Source: a virus. Taken from it: a stretch of DNA of 64,000 nucleotides. Below are positions 5,948 to 58,691 of this stretch, piece after piece. How positions within the stretch are numbered: position 1 is the stretch's first letter; the number at the start of each line of letters is the position of its first letter. Under the pieces are notes generated by a model that saw nothing but the letters and a program-made list of their open reading frames with translations, was not told the origin of the DNA and ran no database searches. Both the position numbers and the translations under genes were made by a program. The DNA lies in the IMG/VR virus record IMGVR_UViG_3300013101_001415. One strand, written 5' to 3'.

Positions 5948-6248
5948 AAAAAGGGATTTAATTAGACAAAACTTTTCTGAATCTATTAGACCATGTAATC
6001 ATTGTAATGGAACAGGATTAGATAATATAGCTAGTCTTGAAGGGGATTATGCTTGGGATGGTAGTAGTTTTTGTGATCATTGTGAAGGTATTGGTTATTT
6101 GAGCTGGAAAGAAACAATGACTAAAAAACTTTGTCCAAGATGTAAAGGTTATGGGAAAATTGGTAACACACCATGTTCTGGATGCCATGGAGAAGGATTA
6201 GTTGATTGGTTAAGATATATGATGATTGGAGGATCTAAAGAAAAATGA
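5910..6248 (+). CDS. stand-alone DnaJ-type cysteine-rich (CR) zinc-finger protein
   Basis: four CxxCxGxG repeats: CNHCNGTG, CDHCEGIG, CPRCKGYG, CSGCHGEG; start taken at second ATG with better RBS spacing. Confidence 0.6.
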   Translation: MFLTPTQMLKANKKRDLIRQNFSESIRPCNHCNGTGLDNIASLEGDYAWDGSSFCDHCEGIGYLSWKETMTKKLCPRCKGYGKIGNTPCSGCHGEGLVDWLRYMMIGGSKEK

Positions 6249-6538
6249 TTTTATTAGAAAGATTAAAAAATATTTTAAAAATAGATAAATTTAAAAAACA
6301 TACATTTCCATGTATTGATTGTTTAATTCTACCAACTGGTTGTAGTGAAATATGTGATAAAGTTGAAACTAACAAAGAAAAAATAAAAAAGTTATTTTTA
6401 AAATATGAATGTTGTATAGATTGCGGATCAACTCATTTACTTGAAGGTCCATCAGGTGGTATGTCACAAAATATTTCATGTGCAAAATGTGGTCATAGAT
6501 TTAATATGGCGTTACCACTATTTATAGAAAGAATATAG
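6245..6538 (+). CDS. PCxxCL-Cys4 mini-protein family member 1 with C-terminal Zn-ribbon
   Basis: FPCIDCLILPTGCSEICD motif shared with three other ORFs in the window; extra CCIDCGS..CAKCGH ribbon. Confidence 0.5.
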   Translation: MILLERLKNILKIDKFKKHTFPCIDCLILPTGCSEICDKVETNKEKIKKLFLKYECCIDCGSTHLLEGPSGGMSQNISCAKCGHRFNMALPLFIERI

Positions 6539-6548
6539 GAGATAAAAA

Positions 6549-6821
6549 ATGGGAAATGAACACGGTAATATGCAAGGGATGAGTCAGGGAACATGTCCAG
6601 AATGTGGATTTTCACACCCTCCAGTAGCAGGTGGATGTCCAATGAAAAAGAAAAAACAAAAAAGTCCATCAGGACAAAGCATTGATTATAATATATTATT
6701 TACACCATTAAAAAAAATATTATATTCTCAGATTAAAATGAAAGATATAAAAGATGTTAATAAAATGTTTCAATCAATGATAGTTAGTTGTACTAAAATT
6801 GCTGAAGAATATAAAGAATAA
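6549..6821 (+). CDS. Zn-ribbon protein
   Basis: CPECGF..GGCP motif. Confidence 0.45.
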   Translation: MGNEHGNMQGMSQGTCPECGFSHPPVAGGCPMKKKKQKSPSGQSIDYNILFTPLKKILYSQIKMKDIKDVNKMFQSMIVSCTKIAEEYKE

Positions 6822-7057
6822 TGTTTCCATGTAGAGAATGTTTAGTAGCACCTACATGCACAGAGTTATGTAAAGAACTAAAAAATCGTTCTAGAGAATC
6901 AGTTTCTAAATTTTTAACTGAATATAAAATTTGTCCTGATTGTGGTGAAAAAAATTATTTTAATACAAATTCTTCTATGCTTTATCAATTAAAATGTAAA
7001 TATTGTAATAATATATTTAAAATGTATGGATTAAATTTTTTAGAGAGAGATAAATAA
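6821..7057 (+). CDS. PCxxCL-Cys4 mini-protein family member 2
   Basis: MFPCRECLVAPTCTELCKEL plus CPDCGE..CKYCNN ribbon. Confidence 0.5.
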   Translation: MFPCRECLVAPTCTELCKELKNRSRESVSKFLTEYKICPDCGEKNYFNTNSSMLYQLKCKYCNNIFKMYGLNFLERDK

Positions 7058-8050
7058 ATGGGGACAGTAGGTATATATAATGAAGAATTTTTAAATTATC
7101 TTGAAGTTAATTTAGGTTCAATAAAAACCAATCCTAAGAATATTATTACTAAATGCCCTTGGTGTGATTTAGGAGTAGAAACATCTAAAGACCATTTATG
7201 GATTTCAATGCATGATCCTATATTTCATTGCTTTAGAGGTGGATGTAATCAAAGCGGATTAATTAGAAAACTTACGGAAAAGATAGAAGGTAAAGATTCT
7301 TCATCTACTTATGTTAATAAAGAACAAGTTAAACACTTTAAAGTAGAAAAAGTAAAATTTGAAAAAAATGAATTTAAACCAAAAGATATTATATTACCAA
7401 AATTAAATACTGATAAGTTTTCTTTAAAATCATTATACATTAAACAAAGATTTAAATTTGAAAACATACCATTAGATTCTGTTAGTGGGTTAGTGTTTGA
7501 TATTGATGAATTAATAAGAATAAATAATATACAATTAGATGAAAAAGTTTTAAGGTTTAAAGATTATTTACAAACTAACTTTGTGGGGTTTTTAACTGAA
7601 AATCAATCTTGTGTATCCATGAGAAACATTGACAGCAAATCAGAGTTTAGATATTATAAATTAAATATTCAACCATCACAATTATTAGATTATTATAAGT
7701 TGTTTGGGTTTAAAAAAAATTCAAAACATATTATTATGGCGGAGGGAATATTTGATATTTACTCTGAACATATATATAATGTGCTAGAATTAAAGAATAA
7801 AGCTGCAGCTTATATAGCAGCCTTATCAACTTCGTACGCAGCAGCTATAAAAAGTGTTGTTTTTAATGAACAAATTTTTAGACCAATAATACATATTTTA
7901 TCTGACAGAGAAATACCTATAAAATATTACGAGAAAATTATGAAATATAATAAACATTTAATAGAATCATTACATGTATATTATAATAAAACGGGAAAAG
8001 ATTTTAATGATACACCAATTAATATAAGCTGTACTAATATTTTAAGTTAA
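7058..8050 (+). CDS. 61: DNA primase (T4 gp61/DnaG-like)
   Basis: N-terminal zinc ribbon CPWCDLG...FHCFRGGCNQSG (DnaG-type HCFGCG); TOPRIM-like EGIFD. Confidence 0.75.
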   Translation: MGTVGIYNEEFLNYLEVNLGSIKTNPKNIITKCPWCDLGVETSKDHLWISMHDPIFHCFRGGCNQSGLIRKLTEKIEGKDSSSTYVNKEQVKHFKVEKVKFEKNEFKPKDIILPKLNTDKFSLKSLYIKQRFKFENIPLDSVSGLVFDIDELIRINNIQLDEKVLRFKDYLQTNFVGFLTENQSCVSMRNIDSKSEFRYYKLNIQPSQLLDYYKLFGFKKNSKHIIMAEGIFDIYSEHIYNVLELKNKAAAYIAALSTSYAAAIKSVVFNEQIFRPIIHILSDREIPIKYYEKIMKYNKHLIESLHVYYNKTGKDFNDTPINISCTNILS

Positions 8051-56859: not shown

Positions 56860-56862
56860 ATT

Positions 56863-58290
56863 ATGATTGAGCTTAGTAGGAGATCTGGTATTGTAATTCC
56901 AAAAACATATGAAAATGAGAGTTGGTTCCATTTGATAAGGGCTCATCTTTTCAGATATCAAAGAATGTATAACTCTCCGTTATTGGAAACACAAACATTC
57001 TTTTCAGAATCCAAAAAGTTTCTAACTATCCCACGTTTCTTCCCAATTCATGAGTATATTGATAATGATGAGGTGACCATTGTTGATAATACTCATGAAG
57101 GGGAAGATATTAAAATAGAACATAACATTATACCAAGGAATGATACCCAAATATTAGCTATAGATTATATGAATGCTAATAATAATGGAATGATTAAACT
57201 GGGTCCAGGGATGGGTAAAACGGTCATTAGTATCTATATGATAGCTACAAGGAAAAAGAAAGCAATAATAGTTGTTCATAGAGATAGTCTTGACAAACAA
57301 TGGAGAAAAAGATTATTAGAACATAGCAATTTAGAAATGAATGATATTGCTTTATTAAATTCAGCTAAATTTGAAGAACAATTAATGGAATCTCCAGTCA
57401 TAATATCAACATCACAAACAATAACATCAATATTAAAAAGATTTCCTCTTGAATATTTGACTACTCTACATAAAGCTAATATTGGAATTTCTATATTTGA
57501 TGAATTACATACTACAGTAGGTGCTCCAACTTTTTCAAAATGTTCATTACATATGCCTTCTAGAGTTACATATGGATTAAGCGCAACACCATATAGAAAT
57601 GATGGTAATACAGATATTATTAAATATCATTTAGGAGATATGTTAGAAAGTGATAGTGATGATGATACAATGCCAGCTGAGGTTACATTTATATTAGTTG
57701 ATTTTGATATTGATACACCAAGAAGATTTAAATATTTAAATTGGGAGGGTAATTTTCAAAGATCTAGATATTTAAACATAATGAAAAATTCAAAAGTGTT
57801 TATGGATTTAGTTAAAGCTTTGTTAATGAAATTATCTAAGGATAGAAATTTATTATTTATATCAGAACGTGTGGATAAAATGATAAATATTTTATTTGAT
57901 TGGATGCCTTATGAAGATAAATCTAAATTTATAGCAGGATCTGATTTAGATGAACTTGAAAAGAGAATTACATTTTCAACACCTGGTAAAATACGAGATG
58001 GGATTGATGTTCCACATAAAGATTCTTTATTAATAACATCACCAGTTAAAAATATAGAACAATTAAGCGGAAGAATAACTAGAATCCATAAAAAACATAA
58101 TAAAAAAACTCCTATAATATTAGATATGGTTGATATAGGGAGTGAATATATTAGAAGTTCTTTTTGGGATAGAAAAAATTATTATGATAAAAAAGGATGG
58201 AAAATTAAATATATGTTTATTAATCAGTTTACATATAAACAATTTAATATAAAGGAAGAAGATGCTTTTATGATGATAAAAGGAGAATAA
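56863..58290 (+). CDS. SF2 DEAD/DEAH-box-like helicase (UvsW/type III res-like)
   Basis: Walker A KLGPGMGKTV, DELH box FDELHT, SAT-like motif, C-terminal helicase motifs. Confidence 0.6.
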   Translation: MIELSRRSGIVIPKTYENESWFHLIRAHLFRYQRMYNSPLLETQTFFSESKKFLTIPRFFPIHEYIDNDEVTIVDNTHEGEDIKIEHNIIPRNDTQILAIDYMNANNNGMIKLGPGMGKTVISIYMIATRKKKAIIVVHRDSLDKQWRKRLLEHSNLEMNDIALLNSAKFEEQLMESPVIISTSQTITSILKRFPLEYLTTLHKANIGISIFDELHTTVGAPTFSKCSLHMPSRVTYGLSATPYRNDGNTDIIKYHLGDMLESDSDDDTMPAEVTFILVDFDIDTPRRFKYLNWEGNFQRSRYLNIMKNSKVFMDLVKALLMKLSKDRNLLFISERVDKMINILFDWMPYEDKSKFIAGSDLDELEKRITFSTPGKIRDGIDVPHKDSLLITSPVKNIEQLSGRITRIHKKHNKKTPIILDMVDIGSEYIRSSFWDRKNYYDKKGWKIKYMFINQFTYKQFNIKEEDAFMMIKGE

Positions 58291-58294
58291 AAAT

Positions 58295-58522
58295 ATGAAC
58301 AATACAGGAATAAATTTTATGGGATTGTTGACTATTTTATTTATAACATTAAAATTAATAAACGTTATAGATTGGTCTTGGATATGGGTAATATCTCCAC
58401 TATGGTTACCTTTGGCAATATTTCTTTGGACATGTGGAATTGTTATAATTGGTCTTATAATATTTGCTATTACTGTTGTAACTTATGAACATTATATGGA
58501 GAAAAAAAGTGCTAAAAATTAA
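58295..58522 (+). CDS. small membrane protein (2-3 TM)
   Basis: hydrophobic throughout. Confidence 0.4.
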   Translation: MNNTGINFMGLLTILFITLKLINVIDWSWIWVISPLWLPLAIFLWTCGIVIIGLIIFAITVVTYEHYMEKKSAKN

Positions 58523-58691
58523 TCCATATTTAATAGGCGCAGCGCCTAGTTTTGATCCATGTGAAAAATGTTTAGTTAAACCAACATGTAGTGAAAGATG
58601 TGAGGATAGAATTAGATTTATTTTAAAAACCCCAGAAGAAATAAAAGTTAAAGTTAGATTACCAAGAAGAAAAAGGAGAAAAAAGATATGA
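58509..58691 (+). CDS. PCxxCL-Cys4 mini-protein family member 4 (probable GTG start after GGAG)
   Basis: FDPCEKCLVKPTCSERCED; ORF-track frame 58485..58691. Confidence 0.45.
   Translation: MLKINPYLIGAAPSFDPCEKCLVKPTCSERCEDRIRFILKTPEEIKVKVRLPRRKRRKKI

Follow-up and report, generated by a model that had tools for sequence, protein, structure and literature searches.

The 64,000-nucleotide stretch of viral DNA analysed here (IMG/VR record IMGVR_UViG_3300013101_001415; hereafter 'the window') derives from an uncultured jumbo phage and encodes four small proteins, P1 to P4, that share a module of about 25 residues built around four cysteines, P-C-x2-C-[LI]-[VI]-x(3,4)-C-x3-C-[DE]-x4-aromatic. Proteins with this Cys4 module constitute a large and previously unannotated family of mini-proteins (about 40–160 amino acids) in uncultured jumbo phages. 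The interpretation placed first here, which is given about an even chance of being correct, is that the module is a Cys4 metal-binding mini-domain, with zinc as the most likely metal, that would scaffold diversifying small phage proteins, and that the four copies in the window would serve as accessory or adaptor subunits. The four genes are listed below, with coordinates counted from the first nucleotide of the window; x5 and x6 denote the number of residues between the second and third Cys.

P1: 6245–6538, + strand; 97 amino acids; N-terminal extension, Cys4 module at 6308–6355 (x6), C-terminal CxxC...CxxC zinc ribbon at about 6410–6493
P2: 6821–7057, + strand; 78 amino acids; Cys4 module straight after the start Met, at 6827–6871 (x5), C-terminal zinc ribbon at about 6932–7006
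P3: 45129–45293, + strand; 54 amino acids; Cys4 module at 45138–45185 (x6), short helical, charged tail ending ATGYIWDEQLEITD
P4: 58509–58691, + strand; 60 amino acids from a GTG start; N-terminal NPYxIG, Cys4 module at 58557–58601 (x5), Lys/Arg-rich tail RLPRRKRRKKI at 58656–58688

A preliminary description of this DNA had reported four open reading frames (ORFs) with a shared Cys motif, and these are present at the coordinates it gave. The pattern PC..CL[VI].P..?C...C matches the six-frame translation of the window exactly four times, at the module positions listed above and always within + strand ORFs, and a looser pattern, C..C.{3,6}C...C, finds no further stop-free match in the six frames. 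The concern that such spacing might arise by chance was not borne out: no strict match appeared in 300 first-order Markov simulations of the window, the loose pattern was observed four times against a mean of 0.03 in the same simulations, and the expectation for the strict motif from the amino-acid composition of the window is 3e-8. Alignment followed by a profile hidden Markov model (HMM), the check that had been proposed, gave the same answer. An HMM of the module built from 119 members, with the window and contigs of the same genome left out, recovers exactly P1–P4 among the 973 six-frame segments of the window (E-values of 1e-12, 3.5e-10, 4e-9 and 9e-7, with the next segment at 0.31), and since its members were chosen by a Cys-spacing expression, the independent evidence comes from the flanking positions only. 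The four ORFs are real members of a paralogous family defined by the conserved Cys4 module, and the copies lie in different gene blocks, as had been described.

The term 'four-member family' holds for the 64-kb window, with its four copies, but the family itself is far larger. A degenerate DNA pattern, back-translated from the motif and scanned over IMG/VR, matched 119 stretches and yielded 134 distinct ORFs, about 100 of which are genuine-looking small module proteins, mostly of 45–150 amino acids, the others being Cys-rich artefacts. In most of these IMG/VR members the module stands right after the start Met or after a short N-terminal extension. Several contigs of 200–295 kb were matched repeatedly. 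For example, locus L126 carries a tandem array of 21 paralogs in 6 kb, L070 has seven module-plus-ribbon paralogs beside a tail-sheath gene, and L020, L025, L066 and L078 have five to eight module copies each. An exhaustive search of 1.84 billion cluster representatives with an 18-sequence module profile returned 545 cluster representatives at E<=1e-3, with lengths of 41–159 amino acids among the 150 matches listed of the 545. Such an exhaustive profile search was required, word-indexed homologue searches having returned 12 proteins from the four-protein alignment and 12 from a 105-sequence module alignment. Two groups of matches to the DNA pattern were set aside: Cys-rich low-complexity ORFs (L016, L039, L086) were discarded as false positives, and a recurrent ORF of 24 amino acids, MLNAILKLPCFCCLIQLLCYR.CL, which is conserved in six IMG/VR contigs of 43–44% G+C (L017, L022, L043, L048, L075, L077), is unrelated to the family.

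The consensus of 124 members is M-K-[ND]-P-C-x-[ED]-C-[LI]-[VI]-K-x-x-C-[ST]-[ED]-x-C-[DE]-x4-[YFW], with a usual spacing of C-x2-C-x5-C-x3-C to which the P1 and P3 copies of the window add a one-residue insertion (x6). The motif as first described therefore stands as regards the conserved Cys4 module, but not as regards the Pro between the second and third Cys, which is missing in most relatives and is changed to Leu in P1 of one strain. The tails that follow the module are variable. Among 145 representatives, 59 combine the module with an unremarkable, often basic tail; about 50 are of an 8-Cys form, in which an upstream C-x-G-C...C...C is fused to C-P-C-x2-C-x5-C-x3-C; 18 have a module and a zinc ribbon, as in P1 and P2; 13 have a module and a transmembrane helix, a type found only in other phages and not among the window copies; and six are tandem double modules. 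Most tails are basic, with a net charge of +3 or more in 49% and of −3 or less in 7%. Selection acts at the protein level, and the ORFs are real protein-coding genes, because the conserved residues are encoded by varied synonymous codons (four for Pro, five for Leu, and both TGT and TGC for Cys) and because the 21 paralogs of L126 are 56% identical over the module, against 13% over the next 20 residues.

When 185,579 species-representative genomes were scanned with the DNA pattern, nearly every match was an isolated one, due to chance and in an unrelated frame, with two exceptions. One is the 37.7-kb contig DAOVGR010000034.1, from a metagenome-assembled genome (MAG) labelled 'Thermoplasmatales archaeon' (L135, L208), where 12 or more 8-Cys module genes stand in tandem and a macro-domain gene is also present; the other is a possible member in a Heimdallarchaeota MAG contig (L225), beside four tandem radical S-adenosylmethionine (radical-SAM) paralogs. 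Either these are viral contigs that have been mis-binned or the family reaches archaeal viruses. Among 50,697 GenBank phage records, a tblastn search with a typical member gave 17 weak matches in Bacteroides phages, all of them outside the module, and blastn with window positions 5000–9000 gave no match at the DNA level.

Within the window, P1 and P2 are paralogs over their full length (34% identity over 77 amino acids, E 7e-14), and the likeness of P3 and P4 to the other copies is confined to the module. The C-terminal halves of P1 and P2 have the hallmark of a zinc ribbon, that is, two CxxC knuckles about 15–20 residues apart, with the Cys pairs at C57-x2-C60 and C79-x2-C82 in P1 and at C38-x2-C41 and C59-x2-C62 in P2. 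Orthologues of P1, P3 and P4 retain the module together with other sequence features of these copies. Those of P1 (P0004–P0011, P0059, P0074 and others) keep FPC.DC.V...C...CDK and CC.DCG..LEGPSGGMSQN..C..C; those of P3 (L014, L062, P0162) share DPC..CLV.P.C..MCP.[IV]I.[FY]Y..R...R.K.E[IV]E..TGY over about 50 amino acids; and those of P4 keep [NS]PY.IG..P.FDPC..C[LI]VK..C...C and the basic tail. The genes are tightly joined to their neighbours. The ATG of P1 overlaps the stop codon of an upstream DnaJ-type Zn-finger gene (ATGA), the start of P2 overlaps the preceding stop (TAATG) and its own stop abuts the ATG of a gene for a 330-amino-acid protein, and P4, which starts at a GTG with GGAG 7 nt before it (or, alternatively, at an ATG at 58485), overlaps an upstream ORF for a 75-amino-acid membrane protein and shares an ATGA overlap with the ATG of the SbcD-like gene. 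These overlapping start and stop codons make it probable that the module genes are co-translated with their operons.

Gene order around P1, P3 and P4 is kept in phages whose neighbouring proteins are only 43–79% identical. The slot of P4, namely helicase, (75-amino-acid membrane ORF), P4, SbcD, an ORF of 100 amino acids and SbcC, recurs in five distinct contigs (L010/L129, L011/L012, L031, L032 and L045) with SbcD identities of 61–68%, and in a more distant relative, L113, it is occupied by a module-plus-transmembrane protein. P3 lies between a conserved gene for a 312-amino-acid protein and an ATPase gene, and this slot is filled by a clear orthologue of P3 in L014 and L062 and by diverged module proteins in L037/L072, L045 and L125. 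P1 and P2 lie within a tightly packed replication block that runs from the clamp loader to the 330-amino-acid gene; in L007, P1 stands between the DnaJ-type zinc-finger gene and a gene for a 90-amino-acid protein, as in the window. The presence of P2 varies: L007 has P1 only, L009 has both, with a P1 orthologue identical to that of L007, and L127 has P2 only. Turnover is rapid, P2 coming and going among near-identical strains. Since each window copy sits in a slot that is also filled by a module protein in related phages, the positions beside replication and recombination genes point to fixed accessory roles, and not only to free-floating host-takeover genes.

The preferred interpretation, a metal-binding head on diversifying tails, would work as follows. 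The four invariant cysteines would chelate a single metal ion, with Zn(II) the most probable, and metal binding would create a compact knuckle of 14 residues that allows a very short polypeptide to fold. This stable head would carry a freely evolving C-terminal tail, and the tail would set the target. Lys/Arg-rich tails such as that of P4 suggest nucleic-acid binding; the other types would be a second zinc ribbon (P1 and P2), a short helical charged tail (P3) and a transmembrane helix (in other phages). P1–P4 might then serve as accessory or adaptor subunits of small size that are produced along with the neighbouring proteins, P4 being apparently coupled in translation to the SbcD/SbcC nuclease genes, and the tandem arrays found elsewhere look like a fast-diversifying toolkit. 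Metal binding, part of the preliminary description, is the natural reading of four invariant cysteines. Zinc is a further step, favoured by a slight margin over the possibility of another metal, because the module, with its 2/5/3 spacing, has the same length of 14 residues as the CCHC knuckle with its 2/4/4 spacing; the accessory role is proposed because the window copies fill slots that are also filled by module proteins in related phages. The functions suggested in the preliminary description, namely host takeover, anti-defence, transcription regulation or anti-sigma activity, would be conjectural for these proteins.

The module is unmatched in Pfam, PHROGs, NCBIfam, PADLOC and the PDB sequences; the PDB sequence search with the module profile had zero matches at E<=10, and PF02467 (WhiB-like) and zf-CCHC were unmatched in the Pfam searches of window and family proteins. 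None of 10 family clusters looked up bore a source name, and literature searches for the motif in phages returned only papers on the SPASM domain, an iron-sulphur (Fe-S) domain of radical-SAM enzymes, and unrelated items. Structure prediction with AlphaFold2 (AF2), another of the checks proposed earlier, resolved the ribbon of P1 as four strands (nine sequences; predicted local distance difference test score, pLDDT, of about 70) but left the module at low confidence. For the P1 ribbon there is a weak resemblance to the RPA12 N-ribbon (E 0.0036), with weak matches also to the L37Ae and aIF2-beta ribbons, and neither it nor the P2 ribbon reached the threshold of a specific family. For P4 (150 sequences; pLDDT 64.5), the model has a turn at P17–K20 and a helix that starts right after Cys4, which at this low confidence fits a knuckle-plus-helix layout.

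Several observations weigh against the zinc-binding adaptor. The metal cannot be assigned from sequence, and the spacing of the module, CX2CX5CX3C, is exactly that of the Fe-S core motif of SPASM domains (PMC5715301). The phage encodes two radical-SAM enzymes, therefore the host can make Fe-S proteins. The AF2 confidence of the module is poor (pLDDT below 50 in P1), and no fold or PDB match was obtained, Foldseek searches of the PDB with the P1 and P4 models having returned nothing significant. The adaptor idea is drawn from gene order alone, and many family members occur in arrays that lack informative neighbours.

The strongest competitor, considered unlikely but a good deal better placed than the last two alternatives below, is that these are Fe-S mini-proteins. 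In this case CX2CX5CX3C would ligate a [4Fe-4S] or [2Fe-2S] cluster, which in the 4-Cys forms two chains might share, and the 8-Cys forms would bind two clusters in the manner of a miniature ferredoxin or a SPASM domain; such proteins could sense redox state, transfer electrons, or bind the transcription machinery as WhiB does. Apart from the spacing identity with the SPASM core (PMC5715301), a genuine radical-SAM/SPASM protein picked up by chance (L226, PCETCLVQPLCNGGC) satisfies the strict motif, and 8-Cys members make up about one-third of the top 145 matches. The phage itself has a radical-SAM/SPASM protein at 17505–18416 and a second radical-SAM protein about 330 nt past the end of the window and about 2 kb downstream of SbcC, on a contig of the same genome (L254, 15824–16867; 347 amino acids; VSWLLTRRCNLDCSYC), and WhiB-like proteins offer a precedent for small four-Cys Fe-S phage paralogs (PMC13013590). 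On the other hand, the SPASM profile PF13186 detects the phage's own radical-SAM protein (17505–18416) at 6e-10, which served as a positive control, yet misses the module proteins (neither the four proteins of the window nor ten family members matched at E<=1, and none of 150 members at E<=1e-3), and in NCBIfam ten proteins gave no module match at E<=0.1. The surroundings of the third and fourth Cys are [ST]-[ED]-x and not the G-G typical of SPASM, and arrays of 20 or more hypervariable paralogs would be unusual for redox proteins. The Cys that follows the x3 spacer is a ligand of another cluster in motifs of the SPASM and ferredoxin kind, and on this basis a lone 4-Cys module does not obviously complete one cluster.

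A bolder version of the Fe-S proposal, slightly less probable again, is that the module is a free-standing SPASM-like Fe-S unit and that jumbo phages of anoxic habitats make dozens of mini Fe-S proteins as redox-sensitive adaptors on their replication, recombination or RNA-polymerase machinery. If true, no known ferredoxin-like protein with two clusters would be smaller than the 8-Cys forms, and the family would match, at low G+C, the WhiB system of the Actinobacteria.

Quite improbable, by comparison, is the idea that the module genes encode precursors of RiPPs (peptides synthesized by ribosomes and modified after translation), with the Cys-rich stretch as the substrate for sactipeptide- or ranthipeptide-type crosslinking by the radical-SAM enzymes of the phage. 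In L029, L041 and L113, an orthologue of the second radical-SAM gene has directly upstream of it one or two genes for module proteins whose motif lies near the C-terminus, and in L034, L076 and L091 module genes lie within about 1–1.3 kb of a radical-SAM gene of another type; but these loci were selected around module genes and the phage group is rich in radical-SAM genes, so that such proximity proves little. Multi-copy precursor arrays are known for some RiPPs and might be compared with the module arrays, yet the combination of a conserved Cys motif with a variable tail is the reverse of the usual layout, in which the leader is conserved and the core variable. Many members, moreover, have transmembrane helices or zinc ribbons, the radical-SAM genes closest to the window genes are at distances of 5.8 kb and more than 10 kb, the window genes lie inside replication and recombination operons, and the radical-SAM gene at 17505–18416 belongs to a KdsA/KdsB-like sugar operon. 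The last alternative, that chance Cys spacing or non-coding ORFs in an AT-rich genome merely imitate a family, has nothing but the small size of the ORFs in its favour and is refuted, with practically no probability left to it, by the significance of the motif, the recovery by an HMM built from outside members, the 545 database cluster representatives, the conserved gene order and the synonymous variation.

One of the four genes is associated with a conserved stem-loop, of which the window holds two copies.

Stem-loop copy 1: 45094–45134, + strand; 16-bp stem (45094–45109 paired with 45119–45134), loop CUAAUAGAAU
Stem-loop copy 2: 47936–47976, + strand; near-perfect stem of 15–16 bp with the same loop, between a vault-protein-like gene and the ATPase gene

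The preliminary description had placed an RBS-sequestering hairpin (RBS, ribosome-binding site) in front of one copy of the family, and copy 1 agrees with this. Its 3' arm holds the Shine–Dalgarno (SD) sequence GGAGGAGG (45119–45126) together with the P3 ATG at 45129, and its predicted free energy is −21.7 kcal/mol (z score −2.9). An alternative in-frame ATG at 45117, in the hairpin loop, would give a P3 of 58 amino acids. The two copies flank P3 and the vault-protein-like gene; copy 2 scores 67 bits with a covariance model. Orthologous stem-loops occur, one each, at the same junction in L014 (4946–4993) and L062 (7215–7262, − strand), neither of which has a vault-protein-like gene here. Over the four copies, 9 of the 16 pairs have compensatory double changes and the loop CUAAUAGAAU(G) is invariant, and in the 930 kb searched the covariance model found only these four known copies. 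In L014 the stem-loop lies about 45 nt upstream of the SD of the P3 orthologue, the RBS is outside it, and sequestration of the RBS is therefore not its universal role. A scan of the window at Rfam gathering thresholds gave no family, and the hairpins were not called by an intrinsic-terminator scan, no U-tract following them. The loop contains TAGAAT, and an arrangement like that of T4, with a promoter inside the hairpin that yields a transcript with a free ribosome-binding site, is possible by analogy. Regulation and RNA processing are conceivable functions of the stem-loop, which could also be a scar left by recombination.

The gene between the two stem-loops (45372–47921) is itself a rarity in phages. 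It encodes an 849-amino-acid vault-protein-like product that carries the shoulder domain of the Major Vault Protein (PF11978, E 5e-19), a vault repeat and a threefold IPKGDE repeat, and it is not at the corresponding position in close relatives; a search for related loci with this gene as the query found nothing. P3 is truncated, at 54 amino acids, relative to its orthologues of 88–118 amino acids, which suggests that the vault-protein-like gene was inserted at the P3 locus.

The genome that carries these genes is the same as that of a 247-kb contig (JAPOGZ010000001.1) in GCA_029935735.1 and is also present in JGI sediment metagenomes. The window has a G+C content of 27%, and essentially all of its long ORFs are on the + strand. 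It encodes replication and repair functions (a T4-type clamp loader, UvsX, topoisomerase II, ribonucleotide reductase, the SbcD/SbcC pair and a helicase) and two large genes resembling the beta and beta' subunits of multisubunit RNA polymerase (RNAP), at 33105–35444 and 36818–40909. Among cultured phages, Staphylococcus phage S6 and Yersinia phage phiR1-37 come closest in the beta'-like protein (22–25% identity), and the best cultured relatives of the product of the larger RNAP-like gene (S6, phiR1-37, YerA41 and others) are only 22–32% identical; the phage therefore represents a deep, uncultured branch of the RNAP-encoding jumbo phages. Other small Cys-rich proteins are encoded around P1 and P2 and elsewhere in the window: a DnaJ-type CxxCxGxG zinc-finger protein directly upstream of P1 (5901–6248; PF00684, E 2.9e-10), a protein of 90 amino acids with CPECG...GGCP between P1 and P2 (6549–6821) and, at other places, three further small CxxC proteins (9223–9447, 11992–12318 and 53400–53708). 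The Cys4 module is in none of these five. The 330-amino-acid gene 3' of P2 (7058–8050), which matched no Pfam or PHROG family, has an N-terminal CPWC...H...HCFRGGC reminiscent of primase zinc-binding domains. The radical-SAM/SPASM gene at 17505–18416 is part of a five-gene operon (16136–20446) that also encodes a fusion of a DAHP/KDO8P-synthase-family protein with a methyltransferase, a protein of 233 amino acids without assignment, a transaldolase-like protein and a CMP-KDO-synthetase-like cytidylyltransferase, and that has the look of a pathway by which the phage would make a modified sugar. In this radical-SAM protein the SPASM part stops after C-x2-C and lacks x5-C-x3-C.

No part of viral 'dark matter' is less well understood than the small proteins of phages, and the present family comprises at least 545 clusters at 50% identity, can be recognized by a single short motif and is missing from every curated library tested. 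Its modularity, with one conserved head and tails predicted to bind nucleic acids, to enter membranes or to form a second zinc finger, and its range from single genes in conserved replication and repair slots to arrays of more than 20 paralogs, make it an entry point to how jumbo phages build and diversify mini-proteins and to the use of SPASM-type Cys spacing outside radical-SAM enzymes. As a zinc knuckle, the module would stand for a new domain family that is useful but of an ordinary sort; as a binder of Fe-S clusters, it would define a new class of phage redox protein.

Three known systems come closest to the module. The SPASM domain (PF13186/TIGR04085) has a seven-Cys motif, CX9-15GX4C-gap-CX2CX5CX3C-gap-C, whose core binds Fe-S clusters (PMC5715301). 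That core is found in P2, P4 and most members of the family (P1 and P3 have x6), Pro often precedes the first Cys in both, and the 8-Cys subfamily has enough Cys for two clusters. The full seven-Cys motif is nevertheless absent: there are just four Cys in P3 and in P4, those that P1 and P2 have in addition belong to a separate CxxC...CxxC ribbon, and the 4-Cys members lack both the upstream Cys...G...C and the downstream Cys of SPASM. SPASM domains, furthermore, are C-terminal to a radical-SAM core (CX3CX2C), whereas the window proteins, of 54–97 amino acids, lack CX3CX2C and the family stands alone in proteins of 40–160 amino acids; the interval between the third and fourth Cys is [ST][ED]x in the module and xGG in SPASM. 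WhiB-like proteins (Wbl, PF02467) are small four-Cys [4Fe-4S] proteins with C-x2-C-x5-C that have phage paralogs and are confined to Actinobacteria and their phages (PMC13013590). Besides the [4Fe-4S] cluster, binding to region 4 of sigma factors is characteristic of the Wbl family. Like the module proteins, they are small, with four invariant Cys and C-x2-C-x5-C, occur as multiple paralogs, are common in phages and mostly lack a classical DNA-binding motif. They differ in that their extra Cys lies far upstream (C-Xn-C-X2-C-X5-C), where the module has its fourth Cys three residues downstream, and in a Gly-rich turn with an aromatic patch, no Gly-rich motif being seen in the module alignments; they are also actinobacterial, whereas this genome has 27% G+C. 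The ribbons of P1 and P2 weakly resemble the ECs_2282/YnfU families, Lar and the RPA12/Rpb9 N-ribbon, all under curated cut-offs and for the second domain only. The retroviral CCHC knuckle (C-x2-C-x4-H-x4-C) is a mini-domain of 14 residues with four ligands, often flanked by basic residues, that binds nucleic acids. It matches the module in its 14-residue length and in the basic residues that often follow, and differs from it in its 2/4/4 spacing, against 2/5/3, with the third ligand shifted by one position, in having a His where all ligands of the module are Cys, and in the hydrophobic pair that the module conserves after its second Cys.

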